In this document: positions 9,792 to 64,000 of the stretch, one piece after another
How positions within the stretch are numbered: the stretch's first letter is position 1
Layout: the number at the start of each line of letters is the position of its first letter
NCBI GenBank assembly: GCA_017991415.1
Contig: JAGOQR010000001.1
Location: 109,385-173,384, forward strand
Direction of reading: 5' to 3'
Source: Candidatus Magasanikiibacteriota bacterium
GTDB lineage: Bacteria; Patescibacteriota; Patescibacteriia; Magasanikbacterales; GWA2-37-8
DNA: 64,000 bases
Notes under the pieces: model-generated
What the model saw: only the letters and a program-made list of their open reading frames with translations
Database searches by the model: none
What the model was told of the DNA's origin: nothing
Made by a program: the position numbers and the translations under genes

Positions 9792-10283
9792 ATGGCGTTT
9801 AAACCTCTCGAAGAAAAACCCCGCCCAGAAAGAACAGATACTGCCAAAGCTCCTCACCAAGAGCTTGATTTGCAATTAGAAAAAGAAGGTGACGATGAAA
9901 AAGAACAACAAAATAAAGAACAAAGAATAGCCCCCGAGACTACTGGCCCACAAAAACTAAAATCTATCCTCAAAAAAAGACCTGCCATGCCGCTACCGGT
10001 AAAAGACGAGGTAATTATTAAAATAGAAAAAATAATGGAAGAAAGTCTCAACGATTCGTACCAACGCCTATCCCCTGTAGCTAAACAAGAATTCAAATTA
10101 AAAGGTGAACAAACAGCCACTCAAATTCGAGAACTCCTCAAAAGCAGTCACATAAAAGTAAAAAAAATATTACGATTAATTTTTGATTGGCTTCGCATGC
10201 TTCCTGGCGTCAACCATTTCTTTTTAGAACAAGAGGCAAAAATAAAAACAGATCGAATTATCGCTTTAAAAAAGAAGGAATAA
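9792..10283 (+). CDS. Hypothetical charged (Lys/Glu-rich) protein
   Basis: 163 aa. Stop lies 3 nt before the start of the VirD4-like gene, so it is probably co-transcribed. Confidence 0.4.
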   Translation: MAFKPLEEKPRPERTDTAKAPHQELDLQLEKEGDDEKEQQNKEQRIAPETTGPQKLKSILKKRPAMPLPVKDEVIIKIEKIMEESLNDSYQRLSPVAKQEFKLKGEQTATQIRELLKSSHIKVKKILRLIFDWLRMLPGVNHFFLEQEAKIKTDRIIALKKKE

Positions 10284-14653: not shown

Positions 14654-14724
14654 CTCCGAGGTGGTCTAATGGTAGGACAGCAGACTCTGAATCTGCTTAT
14701 CTTGGTTCGAATCCAAGCCTCGGA
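14654..14724 (+). tRNA. tRNA-Gln (anticodon CUG)
   Basis: Hand-folded cloverleaf. 7/7 acceptor stem TCCGAGG/CCTCGGA, D-arm GTCT-AATGGTA-GGAC, anticodon stem GCAGA/TCTGC with loop CTCTGAA (U33, C34 U35 G36, A37). T-arm CTTGG-TTCGAAT-CCAAG, discriminator A. CCA is not encoded. Confidence 0.85.
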
Positions 14725-14878
14725 ACAACTCTGAAAAAGCCCCAATTTTTTCGACAATTCGCCAGCCCCGTTTGGCTAAGAATTCAATTTTTGCCACTCA
14801 GAACAAAGTTAAAGGGAGTGAGCAGACAATATAATTGAGCCAAATCTAGGAAATAAATTAAACGATTAATTAAAATAT

Positions 14879-15464: not shown

Positions 15465-16160
15465 ATGAGAAAAAACTATCATATTGCCATAAAGCAATTG
15501 CGTATACAAAGAGGATTTTCGCAATCAGAGATTGCCCAAAAAATGGGTATCTCTCGCACCTCATACATCTCTTTTGAACAAGGTAAGCGTGATATTAGCC
15601 TATCCGAAGCGGCTCAACTAGCCGATATTTTTGGTATTTCCTTAGAAGAAATGGAGAGCGGTACTATTGCAAATTATGAAAAGTACAAAGAAATGATTTT
15701 AGCCTTTTTGCGGTGTGTTGCATCAGTTGATGGAAAAATTCCAAAAACCAAATTAGCCAAGTTGGTTTATCTTGCTGATTTTTCTTGGTTTTATAAACAT
15801 TTGGAAAGTATGAGCGGGATGCAATACCGTAAAATACAATATGGCCCAGTACCGGATAGTTATTTTCGGGCTATTGATGAGCTGGAGGAGTCGGGTAAAA
15901 TCGTAATTGACAGAAAAGAGAAAGAGGGAAGAGAGATGTTGCTCATTTCCGAATCGCAAAGTAATATAAATAAAAAAGTTTCTACATTATTTAAAGACGA
16001 GCTGTCTTTGATTAAAAATATTGCAAAAAAATGGAAAGATAAAAAAACAAATGAAATTGTTAATTTTACGCATAATCAGTTGCCGTATTTGATATCCCGC
16101 GATAACGAGATCATCCCGTATGAATTGATTACACAGGAGGATCCGGAGTATGTCTACTAA
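15465..16160 (+). CDS. HTH-XRE regulator fused to a Panacea (SocA-like, DUF4065) antitoxin domain
   Basis: The N-terminus has an XRE helix-turn-helix (QSEIAQKMGISRTSYISFEQGKR). The C-terminal segment KLAKLVYLADFSWF...YGPVPDSY resembles the Panacea/DUF4065 antitoxin domain. Its stop overlaps the start of the downstream gene by 11 nt. Confidence 0.6.
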   Translation: MRKNYHIAIKQLRIQRGFSQSEIAQKMGISRTSYISFEQGKRDISLSEAAQLADIFGISLEEMESGTIANYEKYKEMILAFLRCVASVDGKIPKTKLAKLVYLADFSWFYKHLESMSGMQYRKIQYGPVPDSYFRAIDELEESGKIVIDRKEKEGREMLLISESQSNINKKVSTLFKDELSLIKNIAKKWKDKKTNEIVNFTHNQLPYLISRDNEIIPYELITQEDPEYVY

Positions 16161-17229: not shown

Positions 17230-17280
17230 GCGCCTTTGTCTTTGCCGGTGCATTGCTTTTAATAATTGTTATACCAAAGG

Positions 17281-17372
17281 AAAGAAAAACTTGAAATCGT
17301 CAAAAAGCGCGCTCACCTGGGCGAGGCGGGCGGAATTCCTCCCCAACCCCCTCCTTCCGCCCGCTATTCCGT
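17281..17372 (+). repeat. Left copy of a ~90-bp GC-rich inverted repeat pair (partner at 59896-59981)
   Basis: AAAGAAAAACTTGAAATCGT...GGCGGGCGGAATTCCTCCCCAACCCCCTCCTTCCGCCCGCTATTCCGT. Contains a 9-bp GC stem CGGGCGGAA/TTCCGCCCG. About 88% identical to the reverse complement of 59896-59981. Confidence 0.8.
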
Positions 17373-17410
17373 TAAATCCGTTCGAATTTTCGTATATTCA
17401 CTGAACCAAT

Positions 17411-20831: not shown

Positions 20832-21077
20832 ATGTCAAGAAAAATGAGTGGCAAGGTTTACCTCTGGTGCACTGATTTTAGACACCCAAACAAATCCGAC
20901 AATGACTGCTCGGGCGAGCTCATCAATGTCGGAGGCGAAAACGGATCTATCATCGAAACCAGGCTGAGGTGCAATAACAACAAGTGTCAACGAGTTGTTA
21001 CAATTTCAGTCGCTGAGCTTGCGTCACTTATTGAGCAAATAAGACAGCGACGCTACCAAAAAAGCACCAAGGACTAG
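20832..21077 (+). CDS. Small zinc-ribbon-like protein
   Basis: 81 aa with a C-x12-C...C-x4-C arrangement, preceded by a strong SD AAGGAGG. Confidence 0.35.
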   Translation: MSRKMSGKVYLWCTDFRHPNKSDNDCSGELINVGGENGSIIETRLRCNNNKCQRVVTISVAELASLIEQIRQRRYQKSTKD

Positions 21078-21413
21078 GTGCGAAAGCGGGCAATATGGTG
21101 TGCGCAAAGAGTTTGTCGGATTCTCTGCAAAAACCGTCATCTTTTTTGCACAAACTAATATTTACATATTAATCCACATACTTAATTTGACACCAAAAAA
21201 TAGAGGTGTTAGGCTAAACATACAATTTAATATTATATATCTGTGGAAGTGAGGTTCAATTCCTCCACTGTGCCGCAACGGTAAACCCCGATTAAATCGG
21301 GGAAGTCCGATCTTCAGATATAAACCCTTCTAAAAAGGGTTTCGTCCCGAGCAGGAAACAAAAATATGTTTATTTTTTGAATCTTTCCTGTTCGGTAAAG
21401 ATTTTTTTGTTAT

Positions 21414-50864: not shown

Positions 50865-51491
50865 TTACCTTGTACTAAGAACTGTGGTATCACCCTTGGA
50901 TTCATGTTCTTTTTTATGAGCTATTAAATCAGAAATAATTTTTACCACAACAAGCACCACAACCATAGACTGCGGTAAACGCCAAACAATAATTGCTGCC
51001 GCGCCCAACAACACCGTAAATTGCATTACAAAAATTCTTTTATACGGTTTCTCCATAAGATACTTAAAACTTTCCTTGTTCAATGGCTGTAAATATTTTT
51101 TATTGGAGATATAATTTACAAAAAATGAATAGGCATGACTGAGACATAATGAAAATAGCCCCCAACGAATTAAAGGTATATTTTGAAATATTTCAACTAT
51201 CTGCTTCATCACAGGACCATAATCAAATCGTCCCAAAAAGAAAACAATGACAAAAAAGTGCGCGCCCATAAAAGCGCCGAAATGCACCATAAAAGCAAGA
51301 GTAGCGATTAATTTTGGGTTGGCAGGAACGCCTTGTCGATCAGACTCAGAAAGAGGCATCAATACTAATTGAACAAGAGTAAAAAAGCCAATAACCGCGC
51401 TCTCCACCCAATAGAGAAAGACAGTTTCAAACACATTCCAGCCAAAAAACAAAACACCTACCAAGGGTATGCAATTGGTGAGTATGAGCAT
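50865..51491 (-). CDS. Polytopic membrane protein
   Basis: 208 aa with about 6 TM helices. Confidence 0.45.
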   Translation of the reverse strand: MLILTNCIPLVGVLFFGWNVFETVFLYWVESAVIGFFTLVQLVLMPLSESDRQGVPANPKLIATLAFMVHFGAFMGAHFFVIVFFLGRFDYGPVMKQIVEIFQNIPLIRWGLFSLCLSHAYSFFVNYISNKKYLQPLNKESFKYLMEKPYKRIFVMQFTVLLGAAAIIVWRLPQSMVVVLVVVKIISDLIAHKKEHESKGDTTVLSTR

Positions 51492-51695: not shown

Positions 51696-51780
51696 AAATA
51701 AAAATAGCTCTATATTCTAGAGTTATTTTTATTTGCAGGCCTTGCAGGATAAGATTGAAACATTTTTTGCTTATTTGCAA
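51696..51780 (+). repeat. Array repeat copy H (terminator hairpin plus conserved box)
   Basis: AAAAATAGCTCTAtattcTAGAGTTATTTTTATTTGCAGGCCTTGCAGGATAAGATTGAAAC... matches the family consensus ...TTATTTTTATTTGCAGGCCTTGTGGGATGAGAGCGAAAC... Confidence 0.7.
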
Positions 51781-51781
51781 A

Positions 51782-53371
51782 TTACTGTTCCACGGTAAAG
51801 ATAACTGGCTCTGATCGAGTGCCGATATAAGTCGCAGGCCCAACTGGCATTACCGTAACCTCGTAGGCATGGCGGCCGCCAGGAGCAAAATCAACGAGCG
51901 GTACAAGAACGGACAAATCAATAGTGTCTTTGATATTCCACCATGGATCATTAATCGAACAAGTCATGCAGGATATCACTACTTGATAACGCGTAGCCGC
52001 GTCTGCCCGTGTCCACGCTATTCTAACTGCGCCATCTTTGCCCATAAAATTATCTCCGGGTACAGGGGCAGTGATGGTTGGTTGAGTATTAAGTACAGTG
52101 GTTGATTGTGAACCCGAAGAATCTATAGTGTATAGACGATAATCAGACCACGGCCCCCAAATTCCAGATAGCGAATAACCACGAGCTCGAGTGCGGCAGG
52201 TAGCATCATAACTAATTGCAAAATTCGCCGTACGCAACAAAATTTCTTCCGTAGTAATATCGGAAACAAGACTATACTGCGACAAATCGTTTGGGCGCGC
52301 ACATTCGGTAGTCACTTGATATTTAATAGCGCCCTGCACCCACCCCCAAGCAATAGTAACCATGCGATTAGAGTTAGCAAACACCTGTCCAGAAACAGGC
52401 AAATCAATTGTTGGGGCGACCACATTAATTACAGAAGTATCAACCGTAAATGGCACATATTCAGACCAATTACCAAGCACACCAAATTTATCAACTGCCC
52501 GGATTCGCATGCGGAAGGTACCATCGCTGCCTAAAAATAGACCAGTAAAAATATTGGTAGCGCCCTGATTAGTTTCAGCCGCTGACACGGAATACGGTCG
52601 GTCATAGGCAATCCAGCAATCTGGCGTTCTCCAATCTACACAACGGTAATGATTGGTTTCAATAATATATTTGTCTGCTCCTGGTACCGCCGTCCATACC
52701 GGATCTAAATCTCTTTCCATGCCAGTAACTGGTTTGACTACCTGATTGTTATATGGAGTTACAAAACGCGGCGCAGGCAATACCGCTGGTTGGATGGCCT
52801 GAGGAGGCGTCACGGGAACCGAGACTGGTATAGACGGTTTTATTGACACAGCTCCGGATGAATTGTCTGTAATTGGTTTTTTGGGATCAGCTATTGTTTT
52901 GCGCGTAGCCCGGGAAATGCCAGTAACACGAAGCTTAATGTATGTATCATTTTTAGCATCATAAATAGCAAAGACACCGTTGCGAACTGCGTTAAGAGCT
53001 GTGGTCTCATACCCGTTCGTACCGATTTTTGGAATTGCAGCCGTAAAATACGGCAAACGAATAATACTATTGCCTTTACCCGGCTCTATTTGGGCAATAC
53101 CTTTTTTATTACTTATGAAAAAAGTAGCTGCGGCTGGTCCCGTCGTTTTTCCTCTAAAAACATTTTGCCCAGCTTTAGTATTAGCACCATTATAAGTAAG
53201 AGTAATATTTTTAGAAATCTGATTGCCTGCTTCTCCGGAATTTAGATAATAGGTAAAGCTAACAGTGCCGCTATAAACATACGTTGCTGCTGCAGCTGCT
53301 TTTGCATTTGCAAATAAGCATACAACTGCTAGCACAGCTGTTACCCCCATCCACGCTCGTACTTTTTTCAT
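51782..53371 (-). CDS. Secreted protein with three fibronectin-III-like repeats
   Basis: Signal peptide. Repeats WTAVPGADKYIIE / IAWGWVQGAIKYQVT / IAWTRADAATRYQVVI. 529 aa. Confidence 0.5.
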   Translation of the reverse strand: MKKVRAWMGVTAVLAVVCLFANAKAAAAATYVYSGTVSFTYYLNSGEAGNQISKNITLTYNGANTKAGQNVFRGKTTGPAAATFFISNKKGIAQIEPGKGNSIIRLPYFTAAIPKIGTNGYETTALNAVRNGVFAIYDAKNDTYIKLRVTGISRATRKTIADPKKPITDNSSGAVSIKPSIPVSVPVTPPQAIQPAVLPAPRFVTPYNNQVVKPVTGMERDLDPVWTAVPGADKYIIETNHYRCVDWRTPDCWIAYDRPYSVSAAETNQGATNIFTGLFLGSDGTFRMRIRAVDKFGVLGNWSEYVPFTVDTSVINVVAPTIDLPVSGQVFANSNRMVTIAWGWVQGAIKYQVTTECARPNDLSQYSLVSDITTEEILLRTANFAISYDATCRTRARGYSLSGIWGPWSDYRLYTIDSSGSQSTTVLNTQPTITAPVPGDNFMGKDGAVRIAWTRADAATRYQVVISCMTCSINDPWWNIKDTIDLSVLVPLVDFAPGGRHAYEVTVMPVGPATYIGTRSEPVIFTVEQ

Positions 53372-53477
53372 ATAAATTGGTTATATAAACTATGGCTGCT
53401 ATAATAGCACGATTCAAAATTCTGAACAATTAATATAAATACTAAAAACTTGTCGTTGATACGATAGCTTAGCTTAC

Positions 53478-53530
53478 AAAAAATCACTTAGCAGGCATTG
53501 TGGGATGAGATAGGAACTTATTTGGCTAAG
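53478..53530 (+). repeat. Array repeat copy A (conserved 40-nt box only)
   Basis: GCAGGCATTGTGGGATGAGATAGGAACTTATTTGGCTAAG. The TAG of GGCTAAG is the stop codon of the 53526-53963 gene. Confidence 0.7.
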
Positions 53531-53963
53531 ATATAGGGTACAAAACATACCAAGGGCTATTCGGCAACTGCTTTCTAACTCCAGCTCTTACTCTATCTAT
53601 ACTAGGAAAATCATACCAAGGATCAACCCAACCACCCTTCACTCTTAACAAGTAATGACCGATAGGATACTTGGTATTTTTGACTATTAAGGTAATAGAG
53701 CCTTCAATTTTAGAAAATTTATCGGCTTCTTGTAGGTTTATTTTGTATCTTTTGTTTTGATTGAAAAACTTACTTTTATAATCTAGGTTGTGAGTTTTTA
53801 AATATTTAACAATATCAAAAATCTTTATACCTTTTTCAATGGTATAAAATTTACTCTCAAAATCTTTTTTAACCTCATCGTAAGATTTATTTAATAGATT
53901 AGCTAAACAAGCGATCCCGCAGCCATTTATATCTTTTTGATGTTGGGGTTTTATCGGAGCCAT
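53526..53963 (-). CDS. Papain-like cysteine peptidase domain protein (C39-like)
   Basis: QHQKDINGCGIACLANLL matches the catalytic Cys context of C39/bacteriocin-processing peptidase domains. 145 aa stand-alone. Confidence 0.45.
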   Translation of the reverse strand: MAPIKPQHQKDINGCGIACLANLLNKSYDEVKKDFESKFYTIEKGIKIFDIVKYLKTHNLDYKSKFFNQNKRYKINLQEADKFSKIEGSITLIVKNTKYPIGHYLLRVKGGWVDPWYDFPSIDRVRAGVRKQLPNSPWYVLYPIS

Positions 53964-53971
53964 ACAGGGAT

Positions 53972-54676
53972 TTAGGAAACTACTTTATAGATGATATGTA
54001 GGTAGGAATTCTTAAGTTTTTGTACCTTGTCTAAACTTAAGGTTTTAATATATTTTAAATCGCTGTCTTTGCGCAAAGAAAGTCCGTCAACTAAAGAAGG
54101 GGTGTCTTTGCCGCCTACTATACATGGAACCACTACCACGGACAGCCGGTCAATAAGTCCTTTTCTAAATAATTCAGCATTCATACTCCCGCCGGATTGT
54201 AGAGTAATTTTTTTCATTTTAAACTTTTCTTTAAGATCAATAAATAATCTTGTTAAATCAACCTTTTTTGAATGAAATACGACTTCTAAATTATTTAGGT
54301 TGCGCATCATAAATGCCGAATGCTGCTTATTGGTAGTAACCAATATTAACCGCTTCACCCATTTTGTTAAATACAAGACACCTTTATCGGTCAGATGTGG
54401 TTTATTATCTACAATAATAAAAGTGCAAGGTGATTTTATCTGCGGTTCTTTTTTAGTGTTAACACCGATCTTGGCCATTACCCGACCTGTGTTAAATGAA
54501 TTAATATCCGTCGTTTTCTCAATATCATAATACTGATACAAGCCCTCTTTTACTCCCTTCACCTTTTTTAGATCAATATCAAAATCCCTGGAATCAATAT
54601 CTCCGGTTGATATTTTACCGTCTGCTGACATTAACATATACAGCGTTGTTTTGGGCGTATTTTTTGGCATGTACAA
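53972..54676 (-). CDS. Dihydrofolate reductase-like / RibD C-terminal domain family protein
   Basis: YMLMSADGKISTGD and C-terminal SGG...GLIDRL pattern. The track start is TTG; a likely ATG lies at 54670. Confidence 0.55.
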   Translation of the reverse strand: MYMPKNTPKTTLYMLMSADGKISTGDIDSRDFDIDLKKVKGVKEGLYQYYDIEKTTDINSFNTGRVMAKIGVNTKKEPQIKSPCTFIIVDNKPHLTDKGVLYLTKWVKRLILVTTNKQHSAFMMRNLNNLEVVFHSKKVDLTRLFIDLKEKFKMKKITLQSGGSMNAELFRKGLIDRLSVVVVPCIVGGKDTPSLVDGLSLRKDSDLKYIKTLSLDKVQKLKNSYLHIIYKVVS

Positions 54677-54751
54677 AAATTAATAATTAGTACATATACA
54701 ATGCCATTTATATTTTATATTGCAAGCCCGTTTATCCACATGGTTCTAGAT

Positions 54752-54826
54752 AAGAATAACCGCTTGGTTAAGCGACTATTTTTCTGTGCAGGCCTTGTGG
54801 GATGAGAGCGAAACTTATTTGGTTAA
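54752..54826 (+). repeat. Array repeat copy B
   Basis: AATAACCGCTTGGTTAAGCGACTATTTTTCTGTGCAGGCCTTGTGGGATGAGAGCGAAACTTATTTGGTTAA. Confidence 0.75.
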
Positions 54827-54842
54827 AAATGAAGATTAAAAT

Positions 54843-55556
54843 TTATTGCATAATCCTCTGAATCTCATTTTTTAGATGTTCGGCTGACCAACCAATCAAT
54901 AACCTTCCCTGCTCTTTGTCCACTACCCATTTTGGGTGCCTATCATGAATTCCATCTTTACTAAAATCTTTAAGCGGGTGCTTATCATCCCAATCATACC
55001 CAATATCTTTCTTAGGATAGTTAGCTGGCGGTACAGTTACTAGGTCCTCATCAATAGCCAGCACCATAGAAGTTTCAGTATTCCCTGCATGATCATCTAC
55101 CGGCCCATTAATCAACTCCATTGTTTTCTGCAAGACTGGCTCTGGATCAAGAGTTATATAATGTAATTTTACTGATCCTAACTCTGCGGTATATTTTTCA
55201 ATAAAACGATCAATCGTGCCTAGATTACCTCCATGCCAGGATATAAAAATAATGTTACTTGCATAATCCTTGAGCGACATAGAAATATCTCGAAGCATAA
55301 GCATTAGGGTTTCTTTTTCAACCCATACAGTGCCAGGAAAACCAATATGTTCTTTGGAACAAGTAATCTCTAGTGTTGGTAAGAAAATTGCTTCAGGGCA
55401 TTCTTTAATGGCTTTTTCCAACATAGCATTCTGGCAATAAGTATCTGTACCGATTGGTAAAAAAGGGCCATGCTGTTCGGTGGCACCCATTGGTAAAACA
55501 AATGTATATTTCTTTTCTTGATTGAAATCAGTTGTTTTGAGTTCTTTTAACAACAT
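54843..55556 (-). CDS. Creatininase-family amidohydrolase
   Basis: LPMGATEQHGPFLPIGTDT signature plus metal-binding His/Asp/Glu. 237 aa. Confidence 0.75.
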   Translation of the reverse strand: MLLKELKTTDFNQEKKYTFVLPMGATEQHGPFLPIGTDTYCQNAMLEKAIKECPEAIFLPTLEITCSKEHIGFPGTVWVEKETLMLMLRDISMSLKDYASNIIFISWHGGNLGTIDRFIEKYTAELGSVKLHYITLDPEPVLQKTMELINGPVDDHAGNTETSMVLAIDEDLVTVPPANYPKKDIGYDWDDKHPLKDFSKDGIHDRHPKWVVDKEQGRLLIGWSAEHLKNEIQRIMQ

Positions 55557-55584
55557 ACTAATTAAAATAATTATTGAGCCATGG

Positions 55585-55717
55585 TTATTCTATCTTTTCA
55601 GCTAATGGTAGTCAATTCGGTTCTAAATTTAGAAAAGGATATAAAAATAACCGCCTGATTAAGCGATTATTTTATTTGCAGGCGTTGTGGGATGAGAGCG
55701 AAACTTATTTGGCTAAG
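55585..55717 (+). repeat. Array repeat copy C (full: promoter, hairpin and box)
   Basis: On the minus strand, TTGACT (55610-55615) N17 TAGAAT (55587-55592) sits ~30 nt upstream of the 54843-55556 start. Then hairpin AAAAATAACCGCCTGATTAAGCGATTATTTT and box GCAGGCGTTGTGGGATGAGAGCGAAACTTATTTGGCTAAG, which ends 18 nt from the stop of the 55735-56337 gene. Confidence 0.8.
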
Positions 55718-55734
55718 AATGAAGAACAATTTTT

Positions 55735-56337
55735 CTAACTTACCCTTACAAAACCTAGTCGCTTTCGATATATCGAAAAAATCAACGCTACATTAGCTAT
55801 TAGTAGATATACTTGAAATGCCGAATTTACAATATCCCATTTTGGTATAGAAGGTAAAACTAACAATACACTGATAAGACTGGCAATAAAAAGATAACCT
55901 GATTCAGTTTCTGGATATTTCCAGGCTTTAACAATTGTAGGTAGAGTGGCAAGCCCATCACCTAATGCGGCAAATAAGATAGCCAAAGCTGGAGAATCAA
56001 TAACGAGCCAGATAATTAAGGCAATAATCGAACAAACTCCGCATAAAGAATCGAACAATGTTAATTTCCAATAACTATTTTTATTTACAAAAGAAACAAT
56101 AAATACGATAAGCGGAATAAAACCTGCAATAAAAATTCTAGATGTTGCCCATAAATCAGCTTGGGCCGAAAAAGCCGCAAATGCTCCGACGAGCGATGCA
56201 AATGCCCATAAACTCCACGAGATACGATTTGGTTTTGTCTTTCCTTTAAGCGTATCTTTAATATAACTGACCGAACCTGAGATGCTAATAACTGCACTTA
56301 CAACAACCAACCAATGAACAAAGGAAATACCAAACAT
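55735..56337 (-). CDS. Integral membrane protein
   Basis: 200 aa with about 6 TM helices. Confidence 0.45.
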   Translation of the reverse strand: MFGISFVHWLVVVSAVISISGSVSYIKDTLKGKTKPNRISWSLWAFASLVGAFAAFSAQADLWATSRIFIAGFIPLIVFIVSFVNKNSYWKLTLFDSLCGVCSIIALIIWLVIDSPALAILFAALGDGLATLPTIVKAWKYPETESGYLFIASLISVLLVLPSIPKWDIVNSAFQVYLLIANVALIFSIYRKRLGFVRVS

Positions 56338-56354
56338 AACATGTAAATAGGAAT

Positions 56355-56491
56355 GATACCTATTCTATCTTTTTTGCTAACCTTGGTCAATTTGGTTCCA
56401 AAGTAATAAAAGGATATAAAAATAATCACTTGGTTAGGCGGCTATTTTTGTTTGCTCCATTTGTGGGACGAGGTTAGAACTTGTTTGGCTA
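56355..56491 (+). repeat. Array repeat copy D (full, more diverged)
   Basis: Minus-strand promoter TTGACC-N17-TAGAAT, then hairpin AAAAATAATCACTTGGTTAGGCGGCTATTTTT and box GCTCCATTTGTGGGACGAGGTTAGAACTTGTTTGGCTAA. The TAG within the box is the stop codon of the 56489-57067 gene. Confidence 0.75.
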
Positions 56492-57067
56492 AATCTTAAT
56501 AAGATTAATATAATTGGCCAACTCTTTAAGCGCGATAGGTAAATCAATAAAGCCATCGGCTTCGGTAATATGTCCTGCATTATGTAGTGTTATTATTCTT
56601 GACCCAAGTTCACTAAACTTTTCTTTGTTTTTGCTGAATGCACCATACGGGTCATTGTCTGAAATAACTAATACAGATTGAGGTAAAAGTTGTTTTACTT
56701 GGGCTATATTAATTGGAGTTGTTAGCCATGGTTTTGCTATCTCTTTCACTTTGTCATTTTCAAGATTCTCTAAATCAAACCAACCTGCCACAAAAACAGC
56801 ACCTCCAACAGGCGCATTAACGGTTTCCAGATAACGAAGAATAGTTTGGCAGCCAATACTGTGCCCAACAAAGTAAGTATCTTTATCTGGTTTACCGACT
56901 AAACTGGCAAGGTAAGTAACCCACCGTTCAATGACTGGAGTATTGGTATCTGGCATCTCAGGAATAAAAACTAGATGCCCTAATTTTTCCAACTCGGCTT
57001 TTAACGAAGGCAGCCAATCTTTTTCTGGACTTCCTTCCCAACCGTGGATAATAAAAATTCTTTTCAT
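56489..57067 (-). CDS. Alpha/beta hydrolase (RBBP9/YdeN-like serine hydrolase family)
   Basis: IFIIHGWEGSPEKDW...VGHSIGC nucleophile elbow. 192 aa. Lies 6 nt downstream of the NUDIX gene, so probably in an operon with it. Confidence 0.6.
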   Translation of the reverse strand: MKRIFIIHGWEGSPEKDWLPSLKAELEKLGHLVFIPEMPDTNTPVIERWVTYLASLVGKPDKDTYFVGHSIGCQTILRYLETVNAPVGGAVFVAGWFDLENLENDKVKEIAKPWLTTPINIAQVKQLLPQSVLVISDNDPYGAFSKNKEKFSELGSRIITLHNAGHITEADGFIDLPIALKELANYINLIKI

Positions 57068-57073
57068 ATTAAT

Positions 57074-57628
57074 TTAAGCTCTGCCACTTCCATTTAAATA
57101 GTTCCATGCCTTCAAAATAAGCACACAGCTTTGGCCATGAGTAATCTTACTGTCCATAACCATTTGAACTGCTTTAGCTAACGGCAATTTAATGTGGGTA
57201 ATAATTTCAGTGCCTTCAAAGGCGGTATTAGTAAATGAGAGGCCTTTAGCTAGAAACAAATTTGCAGGTGAAAAGACAACACTGGTAAACGGATCCATTT
57301 TTCCGAGTTTTACCCAATTCTTTGCTATGCAGCCTAACTCTTCTTGCAATTCTCGTTTAGCTGCTTTAAGAATAGACTCGCCTTCATCGATAGCACCGCT
57401 AAATACCTCAACACTATTTTTACCGATTGCGTATTTGAATTCTTTGGTTAAGTATATATTTCCTTCTTCATCCATAGGCAGGATTGATACCCCAGGAACC
57501 ATCTCTACAATACCAAAGATTCCTGGATTACCATCTGGTCGTACTACCTGGTCTTCATGGACACTTATCCATTTATTTTTATATTTTATAGTGCTGCTTT
57601 TGATTTTCCATGGGCCATGCTTTTTCAT
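57074..57628 (-). CDS. NUDIX hydrolase
   Basis: Nudix box GAIDEGESILKAAKRELQEELG. 184 aa. Confidence 0.8.
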   Translation of the reverse strand: MKKHGPWKIKSSTIKYKNKWISVHEDQVVRPDGNPGIFGIVEMVPGVSILPMDEEGNIYLTKEFKYAIGKNSVEVFSGAIDEGESILKAAKRELQEELGCIAKNWVKLGKMDPFTSVVFSPANLFLAKGLSFTNTAFEGTEIITHIKLPLAKAVQMVMDSKITHGQSCVLILKAWNYLNGSGRA

Positions 57629-57660
57629 ACGAATAGGATTGAATTATTAACTTGTTTATT

Positions 57661-57789
57661 CTATCGTTTCGGCTAAGTATAGTCAATTTGGTTCGAATCC
57701 TATTGCCCCGTACAAAAATAACCGCTTGGTTAAACGATTATTTTTATTTGCAGGCCTTGTGGGATGAGATTGGAACGTATTTGGCTAAC
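57661..57789 (+). repeat. Array repeat copy E (full)
   Basis: Minus-strand TTGACT-N17-TAGAAT upstream of the NUDIX start, then hairpin AAAAATAACCGCTTGGTTAAACGATTATTTTTAT and box GCAGGCCTTGTGGGATGAGATTGGAACGTATTTGGCTAAC. Flanked by GGCTAAG (57671) and GGCTAAC (57783). Confidence 0.8.
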
Positions 57790-57858
57790 CTATAACAATC
57801 ACCAATTTAACTTTCCTTCATAATCTGTTAGAATACGTAAGAAAATAATAAACTTACT

Positions 57859-58716
57859 ATGTGGTTTCTTTTGTCTTTAGGCTCCGCTTTTTTTGATTCA
57901 CTTAAGGATGTAACCGCCAAAATTGTCTCAAAGGAAATTGACGCTTACACAGTCGCGTGGGCTAATCGTTTCTTTGGTCTTATTTTTATTCTTCCGGTCA
58001 TGCTCTTTAACATCCCGAATCATCTTGGCATAGAATTTTGGAAAGCTCTAGCTGTAGTTGGCGTACTTAATTCCATTAATTCTGTTCTGTACATCAAAGC
58101 TCTCAAGGATACACCCCTATCAATTGTTACCCCTATTACTTCTTTAACGCCCATTACTGTGTTACTTTTTTCATCCATCCTTGCCTCAGAAACACCTTCA
58201 CTCGTTGGCTTTTTAGGAATTATTATAGCGGTCATAGGCACCTATGTGTTACAAATCAGTCAGCGCCATACTGGTTTTTTAAAACCGCTCACCTCTCTAT
58301 GGACAAATGTTGGACAGCGGTATGTATTTATTGTTGTGATATTATGGGGCATCACATCAGTATTTGATAAAATTGCCATACAGCACTCTAACCCACTCTT
58401 CTATTTAGGCGCTGCTAATATTGTTTATACACTCGCCCTATTTCCATTTGTTATTTTTAAACCAGGACGTTTACAAATCGCAATTACAAATTATAAAAAA
58501 TTTCTTCCTGTTGGATTCTTTTATGCTGTTTCTACTGGACTGCAGTTTTTAGCTTTACCGTTTACTTTAGTATCATACGTTTTATCAATAAAACGTGCAT
58601 CGAGTGTATTTGGAGTAATATGGGGTAAATTCTTTTTCAACGAAACGAATTTAAGAGAACGAATGTTTGGATCATTAATAATAATTGCTGGCGTTATATT
58701 AATCATATTTGCTTAA
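57859..58716 (+). CDS. EamA/DMT-family transporter
   Basis: 285 aa with 10 TM helices in the duplicated EamA pattern. It is the only plus-strand gene in the array. Confidence 0.7.
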   Translation: MWFLLSLGSAFFDSLKDVTAKIVSKEIDAYTVAWANRFFGLIFILPVMLFNIPNHLGIEFWKALAVVGVLNSINSVLYIKALKDTPLSIVTPITSLTPITVLLFSSILASETPSLVGFLGIIIAVIGTYVLQISQRHTGFLKPLTSLWTNVGQRYVFIVVILWGITSVFDKIAIQHSNPLFYLGAANIVYTLALFPFVIFKPGRLQIAITNYKKFLPVGFFYAVSTGLQFLALPFTLVSYVLSIKRASSVFGVIWGKFFFNETNLRERMFGSLIIIAGVILIIFA

Positions 58717-58790
58717 AAAAATAACCGCTTGGTTGAGCGATTATTTTTGTTAGCAGGCCTTGTGGGATGAGATCGGAACTTATTTAGCTA
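58716..58790 (+). repeat. Array repeat copy F
   Basis: AAAAAAATAACCGCTTGGTTGAGCGATTATTTTTGTTAGCAGGCCTTGTGGGATGAGATCGGAACTTATTTAGCTAA. Begins at the EamA stop codon and acts as a convergent terminator. Confidence 0.75.
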
Positions 58791-58814
58791 AAAACATTGA
58801 TTAATTCTTACAAT

Positions 58815-59636
58815 TTATACTTCAAACTCTAAAATAAGTGGTAGATGATCTGAAATCGGCACATCAGGAACACTAAAATTAACGGGCTTAATACCACTAG
58901 AGACAAAAGCATAGTCTGCAAACTCTTGCCAACCATTAGGCCCAACACCATAGTGGGGATATAATTTTTTAAAAAGACTTCCACGGGTAGTTTTTATAGA
59001 AAATTCTTTAATCAAATTACGAAGACCTACTTTCTCAAACATGGCAATACTTTCCGTGTTTGGCAATAAGTTAAAGTCCCCAGTGATGATTCCTTCACCA
59101 TTCTCTCTTGTTATAAAATCTATAATCTTTTTCGATTGAATAAGGCGCTCATTTGTATCTAACTTATTCCCTGGCTCAGAGGTACCGTGCACATTACAAA
59201 CTGTAATGAGTTTATTATTAACAGCTAGCTGAAGATATTGCAGATTACAAGGAAGGGTAGAAAAATCTTTATAATCAAAGGAGTTTAGTTCTTTGAAAAT
59301 AAAAAACTCTCCGCTTTTTTTAATAGAATAATCTTTTTTAATAAAAACTGCCAAACCTGAATTAATTCCCGGGGCTTTAATAAGGGTTTGATCAAAATTT
59401 TCTTGAGCCAAACCGAAAAATCCTTGATGTTTATTTAAAATCTTTTGCACCTGTTTAAATAAATCTGCTCGATACCCTTGATTTTCAGAAATATTTTTAT
59501 TATTATCTAACATTTCCTGTAAACAAAATATATCAATAGTGTCGGCATTTACTCTAATAAAGTCTATGAGCGGCTCAAATATCTTACCGCCGTAGGTATT
59601 TAACGATATAATCTTCATACTTTTAAAACTTGACAT
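58815..59636 (-). CDS. Endonuclease/exonuclease/phosphatase (EEP) family protein
   Basis: N-terminal ...DIFCLQE (catalytic Glu), ...TGDFN..., C-terminal SDHLP. 273 aa. An alternative start Met lies at 59618. Confidence 0.6.
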   Translation of the reverse strand: MSSFKSMKIISLNTYGGKIFEPLIDFIRVNADTIDIFCLQEMLDNNKNISENQGYRADLFKQVQKILNKHQGFFGLAQENFDQTLIKAPGINSGLAVFIKKDYSIKKSGEFFIFKELNSFDYKDFSTLPCNLQYLQLAVNNKLITVCNVHGTSEPGNKLDTNERLIQSKKIIDFITRENGEGIITGDFNLLPNTESIAMFEKVGLRNLIKEFSIKTTRGSLFKKLYPHYGVGPNGWQEFADYAFVSSGIKPVNFSVPDVPISDHLPLILEFEV

Positions 59637-59649
59637 TGATTACGAATCT

Positions 59650-59760
59650 TATTCTATCTTTGTTAACCTACTTTAGTCAATAATCAGTTTTTTTCACAAC
59701 TATGCGCCCCTATAAAAAATAACCGCTTGGTTAAGCGGCTATTTTGTTTGCAGCGGGGAT
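59650..59760 (+). repeat. Array repeat copy G (promoter and hairpin, box absent)
   Basis: Minus-strand TTGACT-N18-TAGAAT upstream of the EEP gene, then hairpin AAAAAATAACCGCTTGGTTAAGCGGCTATTTTGTTTGCAG. The sequence then diverges. Confidence 0.7.
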
Positions 59761-59895
59761 ACGAAAAATTACGAGGGGAATTTATATTGGAAATGAGTGA
59801 GTAAAATGGATTAGCGGCAGTTGCGCCAAGTTTACTTGGTTGCAACCTGACGATGAGACATTTTCGAGCGAATGACAATATATGGTTTACCTATA

Positions 59896-59981
59896 CGGAA
59901 TAGGACGGGCGGAAGGAGGGGTTGGGGGAGGAATTCCGCCCGCCCACCGGCGCACTTTTTACGATTTCAAGTTTTTCTTTG
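59896..59981 (-). repeat. Right copy of the ~90-bp GC-rich inverted repeat pair (partner at 17281-17372)
   Basis: Reverse complement reads AAAGAAAAACTTGAAATCGTAAAAAGTGCGCCGGTGGGCGGGCGGAATTCCTCCCCCAACCCCTCCTTCCGCCCGTCCTATTCCGT. Lies 14 nt downstream of the CHAP gene stop. Confidence 0.8.
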
Positions 59982-59993
59982 ACGGCAAATTCT

Positions 59994-60776
59994 TTAAGAA
60001 AAATCTATAAATTTAGCCTGATATTTGTCTTTCCACTGGCTTTTGGGTAGAACGCGTTCAGAGTATATCCCTGGAGGTGGCCAATTTACCTCGGAAACTT
60101 TTATACTACCATCCTGATAAACTTCTTCTACAAAGGCAACATGCCCAACCGCAGGATTTTTTAAACTTCCAACAAACGACATGGCGCAACCAGCCTTTGG
60201 TTCATCTAAAACTTTGTATTGTCCACTTCTTTGAAAAATTCCTGCCCACAATCCACCATTACGGGGTCTTTCTTTTGGCCAATTAATAGCAATGCCCATT
60301 TGCTGAACTTTATAATGAACATACTCTACACACTGCAGATCATCTCTTCGCGCTCCTCCGCCAAACTCATCATTAATAATCTTACGCAATTTTATACTAT
60401 TTGCGTCGGTTGCTAAATTTTTTTCGTGATTTTGGAAAACCGGTAAGACATCCTGGGCAATTTCTTTTTTCTGTAAGTTTTCCAACGCTACCGGAGAATT
60501 TTCCTCTAAATAAAATTTAGAAACCCAACCAGTGTTGCCCTCTGAAACCACCTTAACCCAATCCCCACTCTCTTCTACGACTTCAACTTTAGTTCTAAAA
60601 ACAAGTTTTGCGATTATATTATCATTATTAACTTTATCTAGGCTAGAACGCATACGCAACCCATCGGAAGCGCTAACAAATAACTCCTTAGTTGAAAATT
60701 GTGGAGTAATATCCGCTACCTGTGTTTTTTCCTCAGAATCAAATGTTTGGCCGCATTTAGGACATGTTATAGGCAT
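59994..60776 (-). CDS. CHAP-domain amidase/peptidase with N-terminal zinc ribbon and SH3-like segment
   Basis: CPKCGQTF zinc ribbon, GWVSKFYL segment, and CHAP Cys/His context (DDLQCVEYVHY...GHVAFVEEV). 260 aa. Confidence 0.55.
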   Translation of the reverse strand: MPITCPKCGQTFDSEEKTQVADITPQFSTKELFVSASDGLRMRSSLDKVNNDNIIAKLVFRTKVEVVEESGDWVKVVSEGNTGWVSKFYLEENSPVALENLQKKEIAQDVLPVFQNHEKNLATDANSIKLRKIINDEFGGGARRDDLQCVEYVHYKVQQMGIAINWPKERPRNGGLWAGIFQRSGQYKVLDEPKAGCAMSFVGSLKNPAVGHVAFVEEVYQDGSIKVSEVNWPPPGIYSERVLPKSQWKDKYQAKFIDFS

Positions 60777-60877
60777 AAAATTATTTTAATTCATTCTTGT
60801 AATTATTACTGGTGAGATTGTACCACGGTGAAATATTACTACATTTCACCTTTGACAGCAAATTATTTGTTATTTAG

Positions 60878-63577
60878 TTATAAAGCGAACTTTGCTCTTA
60901 ACAGCTGCACATCTTTATTATTAAATTTCTTTTCCAAATTATCTAATATTTTCTTTTCTGTTTCTGGTGTCCAGTAAATTTTTAGCTTTTCTTTTGCACG
61001 AGTAATAGCAGTATAAAATATATTATGCGTAATCATCTCCTCTGTTTCATCGGTAATAACAACCTTGACTGAGTTATATTCTAAACCTTGAGCTTTATGC
61101 ATTGAGACAGCATAGGCTATCTGAAAAGGAACTACCGCTCTTGAAGAATCTTCGTCCTCATCTGTACTTTCTAGCTTGTTGACAAAAAATCTAATCACTG
61201 ATTTACCATTATCAGACTCTCCCAACAACTCTAATTCATGTCCATAAGTATCTAGTTCATTTATAGACTCATCGATTTCAATATCAAATTGTACCTTACC
61301 ATCAAGAATTTCTATACCAAGTATTTTTCCCTTAAGATTATTATGAATTAAAGGCTTAAATCTATTGGACTCATTGAATAGTATTGGATCATTAACTTTG
61401 TAAGTGTGGATGCCCCATTGTTTTGGTTCGTTTCCATTATTTCCTTGTAAAAATCTGTTGATATTATTTATTCCATACAGACCATCGTAGTTTAAACATA
61501 AAATTATTTCATCATCTTCCGAATGCTCAAATATTGAGTCGCTTAACGGCGTATTATAATTATTGTTTGTGATATGCTCTAGAATATCACCTTCGATATT
61601 TCTCACCTTATTCCACAAGGTAAGTAATTTTTCATTTTTAGTGCGATATGGTTTTGTCAACTCAAATACTGAAGTTTTTTGAAAAAATGACTCTGCTATT
61701 CCAAACCAGTTTCCAAAAAGTATAGATTCGATTTGGAAAATATCACCCACTAAAACCAATAATTTAAAAGATGCTTTTTTTAACACATTAAGCATATCTG
61801 AATTACTGACAGTACTACACTCATCAATAACCAACAAATCACACTCGGTGTTGCTATTATTTTTAGACAAAAAACTGGTTACTGTTTGAAATGTAGAATT
61901 TGTAACACCCACTCTTCTTTTTAAATTATTAACTGCTGGGTTGGTGTTGGCTAAATAAAGCTTCTTCTGATTTTTATGAAAATTAGAGATATGGGTTATT
62001 AATTTTGTTTTTCCAGTTCCTGCAGAACCATATATCATCGCTACACGTGAGCTTTCAAATATTTGCTTCATGATCTTCTTTTTTTCTTCACAATCAACAC
62101 CGTGGTCATCTGATTGTAGCCACTTATTAACAGAATTTGAATAATTTTTAAAGCCTGAAGAGGATAATTCTTTTAATTTCTCAATAATGTGAACGGTATC
62201 TTCTTCATAACCTTTTATGTAAATATGATCTTTATAATTTTCAAGTTTACGGTTACCGTGTGTATAGTATAATTTTTTATTATACACACCAATTAAACTC
62301 TCAACATCTTCAAAGCTAGTTATATTTTTTAAGGGAGTGTATAACTGCCCTTTTTGTTCAGTATTATTTTTTATAAATCTTGCAAACAATTCGTGCTTAT
62401 GACTTGTCGGATCTATACAATCAACTAAATCACGAAGTTTAGGGTTGTGTCCTATTGGTGAGGTATTAAACGGCATGTCGTCAAATGGTTTACACCCAAA
62501 TTTTAGATTTAAGTTTGATAATAAAGCACAAGTTTCATGGTTATATTGTAATTTGAGAACTTTATTATTGAGCGTGTATAATAAATATCTAACCATGTTA
62601 CATCCTGCCAAATCACTTTTTATTAATTCACGGCATTTATCTAAAACATTAAAAAAATGTGCCCCTTTGACTTTCGTTGTCACGACATTTTTTTTAAAAC
62701 GTTGGTAATATTCATCGGAAAATTCAACTACTTCTACCAAATTCAAACAAGTTTTAGTTAAAAGCGACATCAATTCCTTAGACTCTATTGAATCGGCTGA
62801 TATTTTTGGATGTTCGCCAAATATATCGGCAAGATGGTTAAGTTCGCATGGACGAATTGATACATTCCAACTATCGATAATTTTAATCGGCATCTTTTTG
62901 CCTAAAACCTCTATCACATCATCACTCGTGGCGAGTTTTACGGCATAGTTTGGCAATATATCTAATTTTGTAAAGGCGATGACTCTATCAAACTTACTTA
63001 CATTATCAATGGCTGTTGTGAAAGTTATTTCATAATATACTTCATTGTTAACAAAAAATGGTTTAACTTTTCTAATATAGTACCTGTCATCATAAGCACT
63101 CTTTTTTCTTTTTGATATTGGCTCGTTAATTTTTTCGGCTATCTTTTCATAATACTCCTTAAGTGCAGAATCAACTGTGATAGGAAAATTGTTGATATTT
63201 TCTAAAACATCAAAGTTATATCTATTCTTTAAAAAAGATTTTATTTTAAGTAAATACTCATAGTATTTTAGCATTAGTCTTTCTGATTTTTCTTCATCTG
63301 GAAGATAATGAGAAAGAGTTTGTTGAAGAAATTTGTGAAATTTACTTAAAAACCTTAAATCAGCTCTTGATGAAACATAGAGCTTTGCTTTATTTTGATA
63401 AATAACGTAACTATAATCATCTTCGCCAGATGCTTTCACCGCAACAGCTTCAACAAAGGTTCTCAGCTTATCTAAAATGTTTTGTGACAAAAATCCTCTT
63501 TCGTCTGCTTTTAATTTATTGATAAGTTTGCATATCGCATCGTCAGAAATACGAATTTGTTCATCTACCTTACTCAT
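60878..63577 (-). CDS. Superfamily I helicase (RecD/UvrD-like) with large N-terminal domain of unknown function
   Basis: Walker A IYGSAGTGKT, Walker B LLVIDECS, C-terminal VSMHKAQGLEYNSVKVV (motif VI region). The track ORF extends to 63682, but the overlap with the HNH gene suggests a start at the Met at ~63577. Confidence 0.65.
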   Translation of the reverse strand: MSKVDEQIRISDDAICKLINKLKADERGFLSQNILDKLRTFVEAVAVKASGEDDYSYVIYQNKAKLYVSSRADLRFLSKFHKFLQQTLSHYLPDEEKSERLMLKYYEYLLKIKSFLKNRYNFDVLENINNFPITVDSALKEYYEKIAEKINEPISKRKKSAYDDRYYIRKVKPFFVNNEVYYEITFTTAIDNVSKFDRVIAFTKLDILPNYAVKLATSDDVIEVLGKKMPIKIIDSWNVSIRPCELNHLADIFGEHPKISADSIESKELMSLLTKTCLNLVEVVEFSDEYYQRFKKNVVTTKVKGAHFFNVLDKCRELIKSDLAGCNMVRYLLYTLNNKVLKLQYNHETCALLSNLNLKFGCKPFDDMPFNTSPIGHNPKLRDLVDCIDPTSHKHELFARFIKNNTEQKGQLYTPLKNITSFEDVESLIGVYNKKLYYTHGNRKLENYKDHIYIKGYEEDTVHIIEKLKELSSSGFKNYSNSVNKWLQSDDHGVDCEEKKKIMKQIFESSRVAMIYGSAGTGKTKLITHISNFHKNQKKLYLANTNPAVNNLKRRVGVTNSTFQTVTSFLSKNNSNTECDLLVIDECSTVSNSDMLNVLKKASFKLLVLVGDIFQIESILFGNWFGIAESFFQKTSVFELTKPYRTKNEKLLTLWNKVRNIEGDILEHITNNNYNTPLSDSIFEHSEDDEIILCLNYDGLYGINNINRFLQGNNGNEPKQWGIHTYKVNDPILFNESNRFKPLIHNNLKGKILGIEILDGKVQFDIEIDESINELDTYGHELELLGESDNGKSVIRFFVNKLESTDEDEDSSRAVVPFQIAYAVSMHKAQGLEYNSVKVVITDETEEMITHNIFYTAITRAKEKLKIYWTPETEKKILDNLEKKFNNKDVQLLRAKFAL

Positions 63578-63581
63578 ATTA

Positions 63582-63998
63582 TTATCGATTCCCCTTTGCT
63601 CGATTGTGAGTTTTACAGAGCATCTGGCAGTTCTTGACTGAAGTCGCTCCACCCTTGCTCCATGCCGCGACATGGTCAGCATCCATATCGCTCAAACTCC
63701 AAATTTTTTCCTTATTAGCATCATGCCCAAGAGCGCAAAGCGGACAGTTTGATTCTTTTTTCTTTTCAGCTTTAGTAGTCTGTTCTTTGTATACTGATTT
63801 TTTAATTGCGTCATCAAAAACTCTAACATCAAGCAACTTTGTATCAGCAGAACCTCCTAAGATAAATTCAAAAATACCTTTGCGATTTTTGACATATGGA
63901 TCTCCGTACAGTTTTTGTACTTCTTCCGAAACCTTTTTTGGATTGTAGGATTTTTTATGGTAAGCCTCATACAACCGTCCCCACTCTAGTCCGCACAT
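63582..63998 (-). CDS. HNH endonuclease
   Basis: CPLCALGH...DADHVAAWSKGG...NCQMLCKTHNRAKG. May extend beyond the window edge at the N-terminus. Confidence 0.7.
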   Translation of the reverse strand: MCGLEWGRLYEAYHKKSYNPKKVSEEVQKLYGDPYVKNRKGIFEFILGGSADTKLLDVRVFDDAIKKSVYKEQTTKAEKKKESNCPLCALGHDANKEKIWSLSDMDADHVAAWSKGGATSVKNCQMLCKTHNRAKGNR

Positions 63999-64000
63999 CT

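Follow-up and report, generated by a model that had tools for sequence, protein, structure and literature searches.

Tandem genomic islands may be bounded by direct repeats of the 3' end of a tRNA or tmRNA gene, each repeat being immediately preceded by a conserved motif unlike the RNA gene (PMC3146451). Elements of this kind that lack an integrase, the cis-mobilizable elements (CIMEs), accumulate by accretion (PMC5704250), and at tRNA genes later integrations have been observed to push earlier ones inward, leaving partial tRNAs within the islands (10.1101/2020.12.28.424599). The present analysis concerns a stretch of 64,000 nucleotides (nt; positions 109,385 to 173,384 of contig JAGOQR010000001.1, from a Candidatus Magasanikiibacteriota bacterium), hereafter referred to as the window, in which an array of small gene units separated by copies of a repeated element occupies 51.7-59.8 kb. 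The array is inserted at the 3' end of a tRNA-Trp gene; its junctions share a core with that tRNA end, its tail resembles an attR site, one indel of whole cassettes breaks at the core, and the box that ends each cassette is conserved across lineages. It is considered moderately probable that this arrangement arose by accretion, a trans-acting recombinase inserting CIME-like mini-cassettes site-specifically at tRNA-Trp.

The repeated element was first noted in a preliminary description of the window made from its letters alone, and its existence was confirmed: the element profile recovers eight copies at E 1e-41 to 1e-16, every one of them minus-strand and located within 51.68-59.76 kb; the remainder of the 64-kb window and 87 loci from relatives yield none. 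These copies are labeled e1 (tail of the array) to e8 (head). They accompany nine genes in seven units of 0.8-1.9 kb, each unit consisting of one or two genes. Only one gene pair had been recognized originally; the C39-like and RibD_C genes, which lie 8 nt apart with no element between them, form a second. The array holds seven boxes, seven hairpins (that of e1 differing from the family) and four near-consensus promoters, in a single orientation. Most of the gene functions first proposed are borne out, with RibD_C, creatininase, Ser_hydrolase, NUDIX, EamA and EEP supported by Pfam and the C39-like match falling slightly under the Pfam cut-off (21.5 vs 22 bits); the FN3 domain ascribed to the protein of 529 amino acids (aa) was not detected, and this protein matches no Pfam family.

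The tRNA-Trp anchor and the empty site

The preliminary description missed the anchor of the array, a tRNA-Trp gene located just outside the window. Four contigs of the same species were used to locate it and to follow strain variation (L001, L003, L004 and L094, the last being of the window type). From the coordinates of L094, the 3' end of tRNA-Trp lies approximately 2.7 kb past the window end (position 64000), and in both L094 and L001 the 3' part of the gene (anticodon CCA, ending ...GAGCGGGCCTGCAAAT) is followed by a defence island and then by the array. The 7-nt core of the junctions, CTGC(A/T)AA, consists of the last three bases of tRNA-Trp and the first four bases of its trailer. An 11-mer, GGCCTGCAAAT, is common to the tRNA-Trp 3' end/trailer and to boxes e1 and e6, the ends of these two boxes being its only occurrences in the window.

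The uninterrupted site was found in two relatives, L101 and L102, recovered with DUF6498, the gene beyond the array tail, as anchor. In both, rpmG is followed by tRNA-Trp (...GCGGGCCTGCTAAC), a terminator hairpin and DUF6498, with no box; the DUF6498 protein is 66% identical in amino acids to that of the window and downstream synteny is kept. Homologs of the box itself were obtained in a relaxed 21-nt pattern scan of other metagenomes, which yielded L096, L097 and L100, each with a 42-nt box 81-90% identical to that of the window; a stricter degenerate pattern had no match in genome, metagenome or viral contig collections. In L097, box-CTGCTAA is joined to an L101-type terminator and DUF6498, as in attR, and from the base after the core onward the sequence is homologous to the empty site. 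The layout of e1 and DUF6498 in the window is the same, the two DUF6498 proteins being 56% identical (aa). After the core in both L097 and L100 stands a hairpin quite different from that of the array, similarity ending at the core, and the left and right halves of the element are found apart in these two contigs.

In terms of attachment (att) sites, L101 is B-O-B', the L097 tail and e1 of the window are P-O-B', e2 to e7 are P-O-P', and the tRNA end in L001 and L094 is B-O-(P'). Box 1 with its core is thus the array tail, an attR-like junction adjoining DUF6498 in a position equivalent to that of the L097 tail, and hairpin 1, by analogy with L101 and L097, probably represents the original terminator side (B') of tRNA-Trp.

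The window is bacterial chromosome and encodes LigA, CysRS, DnaX, SecA, SecDF and parts of a type IV pilus. Its nearest loci belong to Candidatus Magasanikbacteria, a lineage of the Candidate Phyla Radiation (CPR), with 79-84% aa identity in a DsbD-like neighbor. Neither a box nor any array gene is present in the DsbD-anchored loci of relatives (L014-L093), and the four closest relatives (L014-L016 and L018) have none of the nine cargo genes at these loci. The GC content of the cargo ranges from 31.5 to 44.6%, compared to 39.8% for the core genome; this spread, together with the absence of the cargo from the loci of the closest relatives, is consistent with acquisition from different sources. 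Creatininase homologs in L007, L010 and L012 lie in unrelated contexts and were set aside.

Junctions between cassettes

Rather than being a single unit, the repeated element is where two neighboring cassettes meet. In order, it comprises the 42-nt box that forms the 3' end of one cassette, the 7-nt core, and the hairpin and usual promoter that form the 5' end of the next. Its composite nature, split at the core, follows from the hybrid junction of the L001 type (discussed below), from the box homologs that are followed by other hairpins, and from the inverted EamA unit, which is bounded by a hairpin and, at its opposite end, a box, and lacks an element-type promoter.

The box core GCAGGCCTTGTGGGATGAG occurs six times in the window at up to three mismatches, compared to 0 expected in shuffles, and the core CTGC(A/T)AA is present at six of the eight junctions (the exceptions being e3 and e5; Table 1). 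A copy of the element had been noted at every boundary, a complete one being bracketed by GGCTAA(G/C) direct repeats. Box, family hairpin and near-consensus promoter are found together at e4, e5 and e6 only; e3 has a weak promoter, e7 has none, e8 is without a box, e2 is without the family hairpin, and e1 has a different hairpin and no promoter. The second of the bracketing repeats is exact only in e6. The TAG of GGCTAAG/GGCTAAA does serve as a stop codon in two copies, e2 and e5, as originally noted.

The promoter TTGACT-N17-TAGAAT, assigned to each unit at first, stands at four of them. Those at e4, e5, e6 and e8, reading TTGAC(T/C)-17/18-TAGAAT, rank as the region's four best sigma-70-like matches, each matching at 10 of 12 positions, located approximately 30 nt before an ATG and preceded by a terminator-like hairpin; the other junctions are without a near-consensus promoter. 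The A/T-flanked hairpin is the sole conserved helix across the junctions. Of its supposed capacity to terminate in both directions, e7 provides an example, being good on both strands where two convergent genes meet and apparently positioned to terminate both EEP and EamA. The hairpins of e5 and e6 pair completely only in the minus-strand (cassette-sense) RNA, through G.U pairs, which points to selection at the RNA level for cassette-sense termination. Judged by sequence, the hairpins and promoters presumably function as terminators and promoters.

On the promoter side of e6 lies an inverted T-arm-like sequence, GGATTCGAACC; the plus strand at 57688-57700, TTGGTTCGAATCC, is identical to the T arm of the tRNA-Gln gene of the window (14702). 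It occupies the strand opposite to the cassettes and abuts the e6 hairpin directly; it may be an arm-type site, or else what is left of a different tRNA integration. In L009, a different genome, a comparable inverted T-arm-like piece (9925-9948) comes after a hairpin and precedes the creatininase gene.

Given that the box is strongly conserved and, in the cassette-sense transcript, is always located after the stop codon and before the terminator, a role at the level of mRNA, such as the binding of a protein or small RNA, has to be weighed, and a conserved regulatory RNA of the 3' untranslated region had indeed been suggested. No structure supports it: on either strand the box folds no better than shuffles, and tends to be less structured (z -0.07 to +1.5; e6 worse). 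The covariance check called for in the preliminary description gave 0 compensatory pairs with RNAalifold, only the A/T-flanked hairpin being conserved. The box belongs to no Rfam family; a search of the window against Rfam returned only tRNA-Gln at gathering score and, at E below 10, only terminator-driven chance matches. In addition, the inverted EamA gene terminates before any box, and an RNA role would explain neither the sequence shared with the tRNA end nor the empty site nor the indel at the core. An RNA element is hence judged highly improbable.

Other origins of the box were tried and dropped. The plus strand reads (L)QALWDE(I/S)(G/E)TYLA, as if the box were a relic coding tail, but there is no codon periodicity, the variable columns of 11 copies falling on seven third, three first and eight second codon positions. 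The box has no tRNA-model match that would identify it as a tRNA fragment, and a match within a coding sequence of L098 was discarded as a chance match.

Strain variation and the proposed accretion of cassettes

The comparison of gene order proposed in the preliminary description revealed variation in the presence of EEP and EamA exactly at an element boundary. L001, L003 and L004 are without EEP-e7-EamA and are otherwise approximately 99.5-99.9% identical over 12.9 kb. Their hybrid junction runs through e8-left to the end of CTGCAAA and continues with e6-right from the next base; since the switch occurs at CTGCAAA, the break is placed inside the seven shared bases and not in the 20-nt identity of the hairpin. 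Of the original reading in terms of cassettes and recombination, this boundary-exact indel, the empty site and the sharing of the tRNA-Trp end uphold the substance, while the analogies drawn with integrons and transposable elements fail (see below).

A second kind of variation is found in the slot between tRNA-Trp and the array, where defence genes differ by strain between conserved flanks (window 59994-64000 and beyond, on L094:381-6729, vs L001:377-4811). One strain carries genes for an HTH protein, a 77-aa protein, an EcoRI-like methylase, GmrSD/HNH, a RecD2-like helicase and CHAP-SH3, the island running past the window with the methylase and HTH genes before tRNA-Trp is reached; the other carries genes for an HTH protein, an MvaI/BcnI-type restriction enzyme, a LexA-S24-C5-methylase fusion and two unknown proteins. 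The independent Logan contigs L001, L004 and L094 all begin at position 8 of tRNA-Trp, which suggests that the assembly graph branches there, either through alternative upstream contexts or through co-occurring relatives that share the tRNA.

Such variation could be produced if the junctions were mere homology for RecA-mediated swapping, deletion and duplication following natural transformation, with no site-specific enzyme involved. The type IV pilus parts of the window (PilM, a prepilin peptidase and a pilin-like protein) could serve DNA uptake, the indel lies within a diverged tract that may be imported, and the neighboring defence island has been swapped between conserved flanks. Homologous recombination of this kind is nevertheless regarded as very unlikely to account for the array: of the two neighboring identities, it is the 7-nt one and not the 20-nt one that contains the indel junction; similarity to the empty site sets in precisely at the core, a position coinciding with the tRNA 3' end; and the first acquisition of the same box by unrelated genes is left without explanation.

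With site-specific accretion at tRNA-Trp, the DNA from approximately 51.7 kb to past the window end would have been inserted at the 3' end of the tRNA gene. Each cassette would be built from a terminator hairpin, in most cases a promoter of sigma-70 type, its one or two cargo genes and, as the recombination arm at its end, the 42-nt box. Cassettes would be gained and lost by recombination at the core, the partners being either two boxes or a box and the tRNA end, and it would follow that internal junctions are P-O-P' and the far end is P-O-B'. Because a cassette landing behind the tRNA must supply a terminator, the hairpin would stand right after the core, replacing the tRNA's own terminator and insulating the cassette. 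The promoter would be carried because the cargo must be expressed in a foreign context, and would render the cassette self-expressing. Serial insertion of this kind accounts for the layout first perceived as a modular element. The mobile units would be the single cassettes, and the recombinase, presumably encoded elsewhere, is most likely a tyrosine recombinase in view of the 7-nt overlap at the tRNA end.

A number of observations weigh against this proposal. As previously stated for the window, no integrase or transposase is apparent; Pfam and NCBIfam gave no integrase, serine recombinase or transposase in any of its open reading frames of at least 100 aa, nor any recombinase family in the islands between tRNA-Trp and the array of L001 and L094, the tRNA-proximal genes encoding HTH, methylase, GmrSD and helicase in one case and HTH, restriction enzyme and methylase in the other. 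Neither a circular form nor an attP-bearing element was found among INPHARED phages, PLSDB plasmids, IMG/VR (queried with the box or the tRNA-Trp end) and viral contigs. The box has no inverted core-type half-sites and, upstream of the 11-mer, its similarity to the 3' half of tRNA-Trp is weak (p 0.013-0.32), an origin of the box from the tRNA being possible on this comparison. The sequence left of the e8 core (59754-59805) is not box-like; its similarity to a degenerate box was not significant when the segment was compared without the core. Among 11 contigs of the species there are two array alleles only. Finally, divergence is higher on either side of the indel than in the remainder of the array: NUDIX has 12 single-nucleotide polymorphisms in 350 nt, and the opposite flank is 96% identical; the indel may thus have been imported by homologous recombination from a lineage with an earlier event, and need not be a recent excision.

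Several of these features would also be seen if the array were a set of fossil scars, left by integrase-bearing islands that inserted serially at tRNA-Trp and decayed to one or two genes, with boxes and cores as dead att remnants and no cassette mobility today. There is no recombinase in cis, the array is identical in all strains bar one indel, the distal junctions e1, e2 and e5 are degenerate, and the formation of CIMEs through decay is documented (PMC5704250). Such a history would, however, need seven independent decays, each trimmed exactly to hairpin, promoter, cargo and box, and no integrase fragments or other junk are found between the units. Moreover, dead scars would not be expected to keep 81-90% identity in the box where protein identity is 56%, and strong promoters are conserved. 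Decay to fossil scars is accordingly held to be unlikely.

Relation to described islands and integrons

Recognition of the tRNA-Trp anchor places the array among the tRNA-linked tandem islands. It has the defining features of the integrase-less, CIME-like type: it lies immediately 3' of a tRNA gene, at a site that is uninterrupted in relatives, its repeats copy the tRNA 3' end, and it combines strain variability with atypical composition. The assignment as CIME-like, rather than as an autonomous island, is made because no integrase gene is present at the tRNA-proximal end. A close parallel is provided by the ssrA genomic islands of Dehalococcoides (PMC3146451), which likewise form tandem units directly downstream of a single-copy tRNA or tmRNA gene, bounded by a direct repeat of the RNA gene 3' end with a conserved, non-matching motif just upstream, and have strain-variable content with disrupted local synteny. 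Unlike these many-kb islands, the array is made of units of which none has an integration module; its tRNA identity is only 7-11 nt and its conserved non-tRNA motif long (~31-35 nt), and every unit brings a terminator and most a promoter.

CIMEs share with the array units att-flanked ends, the absence of integrase and transfer genes, and a tandem position at the 3' end of the target gene (PMC5704250). They are regarded as decayed integrative and conjugative or integrative and mobilizable elements and are usually few, whereas the array has seven uniform minimal units sharing both ends, for which no helper element is visible; this uniformity suggests propagation of the minimal form as such. The tycheposon islands of Prochlorococcus (10.1101/2020.12.28.424599) are similar in residing next to tRNA genes in a streamlined genome, with scattered att remnants in the form of partial tRNAs and with later integrations pushing earlier ones inward. 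Tycheposons encode a tyrosine recombinase, often replication genes, and cargo of up to 10 kb or more; the array has no such modules, and its att remnant is a distinct conserved box, not a plain tRNA fragment. With its units of one or two genes, uniform ends over seven units, a long conserved arm beside a short tRNA identity, strong conservation of this arm over lineages in which the orthologous protein is just 56% identical, and a CPR host, the array is unusual.

Integrons proper possess a gene for the tyrosine recombinase IntI, adjoining attI at the head of the array. Their attC sites are imperfect inverted repeats (R''-L''...L'-R', RYYYAAC/GTTRRRY) that fold as single-stranded hairpins, and their cassettes are mostly promoterless and expressed from a common promoter, Pc. 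Chromosomal integrons and clusters of attC sites lacking integron-integrases (CALINs), for example the Vibrio cholerae repeat (VCR) arrays of Vibrio, were reportedly treated by Cury et al. in 2016. The present array is like an integron in being unidirectional, with unrelated, mostly single-gene cassettes and a lineage-typical repeat at each end, as well as in having its crossover at the repeat end, variation near the array head, and gain and loss at the repeat boundary. It differs in the absence of IntI and of an integrase-adjacent attI, in a linear, unstructured repeat, in cassettes with their own promoter and terminator, and in its anchorage on a tRNA gene. No intI or Phage_integrase gene was detected in the region among open reading frames of at least 100 aa; a GTTRRRY/RYYYAAC inverted pair is absent, TTAGCC being repeated directly and not inverted, and no attC-type fold is formed. 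By eye, the sites are also direct repeats and not the inverted 28-bp pairs of Xer/dif-type modules.

The likeness to integrons noted in the preliminary description does not, then, extend to membership, and a promoter-carrying miniature inverted-repeat transposable element (MITE), its other analogy, fares no better: end-to-end pairing is absent in a 141-nt junction, there are no terminal inverted repeats, the element occupies one locus in one orientation, and its halves occur separately in other genomes, with separate histories. Despite the head-to-tail order of unrelated cassettes with a species-typical repeat, as in VCR arrays, a true integron or CALIN, or a MITE, is scarcely credible here.

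The gain and loss of accessory genes is poorly understood in the CPR, or Patescibacteria, whose genomes are very small. The locus described here is a tRNA-anchored hotspot in which unrelated genes are stored as uniform, apparently self-expressing mini-cassettes beside a strain-variable defence island. It is conceivable, if rather doubtful, that it belongs to an undescribed gene-capture platform of CPR bacteria, integron-like in working and built differently, with a chromosomal recombinase acting in trans, the tRNA-Trp 3' end as entry site, the linear 42-nt box as recognition site, and cassettes of one or two genes with their own terminator and promoter; such a platform would provide tiny genomes with a plug-and-play rack for accessory genes. 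If the cassettes are mobile through a trans-acting recombinase, they would represent a second, independently evolved solution to the problem solved by integrons, and the box would offer an easy means of searching groundwater and other metagenomes for cassette pools. The conservative reading still gives base-resolved attB, attR and tandem P-O-P' junctions in an uncultivated lineage.

Table 1. Positions in the window of the array, its junctions and the adjoining genes
Feature	Position	Strand	Remarks
DUF6498 gene	50865-51491		beyond array tail
Hairpin 1 (e1)	51699-51731	-	unlike family hairpin; DUF6498 follows
Box 1 (e1)	51732-51773	-	34/42 identical to e6; includes core CTGCAAA (51732-51738)
Cargo: 529-aa secreted-looking protein	51782-53371	-	
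Box 2 (e2)	53488-53529	-	core CTGCTAA; no family hairpin after it
Cargo: RibD_C-like + C39-like	53526-54676	-	one unit; RibD_C-like 53972-54676, C39-like 53526-53963
Junction e3	54752-54826	-	box 3 54785-54826, core CTGCACA; hairpin 54752-54783
Cargo: creatininase-family hydrolase	54843-55556	-	Pfam
Junction e4	55587-55716	-	box 4 55675-55716, core CTGCAAA; hairpin 55644-55673; promoter TTGACT-17-TAGAAT 55587-55615
Cargo: 200-aa membrane protein	55735-56337	-	
Junction e5	56362-56492	-	box 5 56451-56492, degenerate core GAGCAAA; hairpin ~56418-56449; promoter TTGACC-17-TAGAAT 56362-56390
Cargo: NUDIX + Ser_hydrolase	56489-57628	-	NUDIX 57074-57628, Ser_hydrolase 56489-57067; Pfam
Junction e6	57658-57788	-	box 6 57747-57788, ends GGCCTGCAAAT; hairpin 57714-57745; promoter TTGACT-17-TAGAAT 57658-57686
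Cargo: EamA transporter, inverted	57859-58716	+	own promoter-like site 57807-57834; absent in L001, L003, L004
Junction e7	58717-58791	-	box 7 58750-58791, core CTGCTAA; hairpin 58717-58748
Cargo: EEP-family nuclease/phosphatase	58815-59618	-	absent in L001, L003, L004
Head junction e8	59651-59753	-	core CTGCAAA 59747-59753; hairpin 59716-59745; promoter TTGACT-18-TAGAAT 59651-59680
Strain-variable defence island	59886-64000	-	GC-rich repeat, CHAP-SH3, RecD2-like helicase, GmrSD/HNH

Further repeats were noted around the array and in related genomes. A GC-rich dispersed repeat of approximately 90-110 nt (...GGGCGGAATTCCTCCCCCAACCCCTCCTTCCGCCCG...) occurs in this genome of 39% GC at 17270-17375 and 59886-59995 of the window, at 124-189 and 4811-4915 of L001 and at 124-189 of L094; an inverted pair of it brackets the defence island by tRNA-Trp, and it belongs to no Rfam family. 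Beside the array head, at approximately 59795-59880, lies a second small family (GAAATGAGTGAG, a hairpin and TTCGAGCGAATGA), of which four copies, three in tandem, are present in the Magasanikbacteria metagenome-assembled genome L016 (121-164, 2737-2959).

Repeats of tRNA ends appear to be a common feature of these genomes. Downstream of DsbD-HTH-p143, the close relative L015 carries tRNA-Asn-like 3' halves as three 75-nt copies (12336-12455, 14141-14260 and 21070-21189), and the same neighborhood of L016, another close relative (12290-12475), contains a second terminator together with 17 nt that duplicate the tRNA-Asn 3' end. A different family of box plus hairpin, laid out as in the array, is found on the 568-kb contig L009 of a CPR genome from the Joint Genome Institute (5637-5786, 9888-9918, 10719-10865 and 11577-11636), where a box of 86-100 nt stands right after the stop codon of epimerase and creatininase genes and is followed by a hairpin resembling the tRNA-Asn terminator. 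Within the window, an HTH-SocA/Panacea antitoxin-like gene (15465-16160) lies approximately 0.7 kb downstream of tRNA-Gln (14655-14726), near a copy of the GC-rich repeat, and its region may be a second small tRNA-linked islet.

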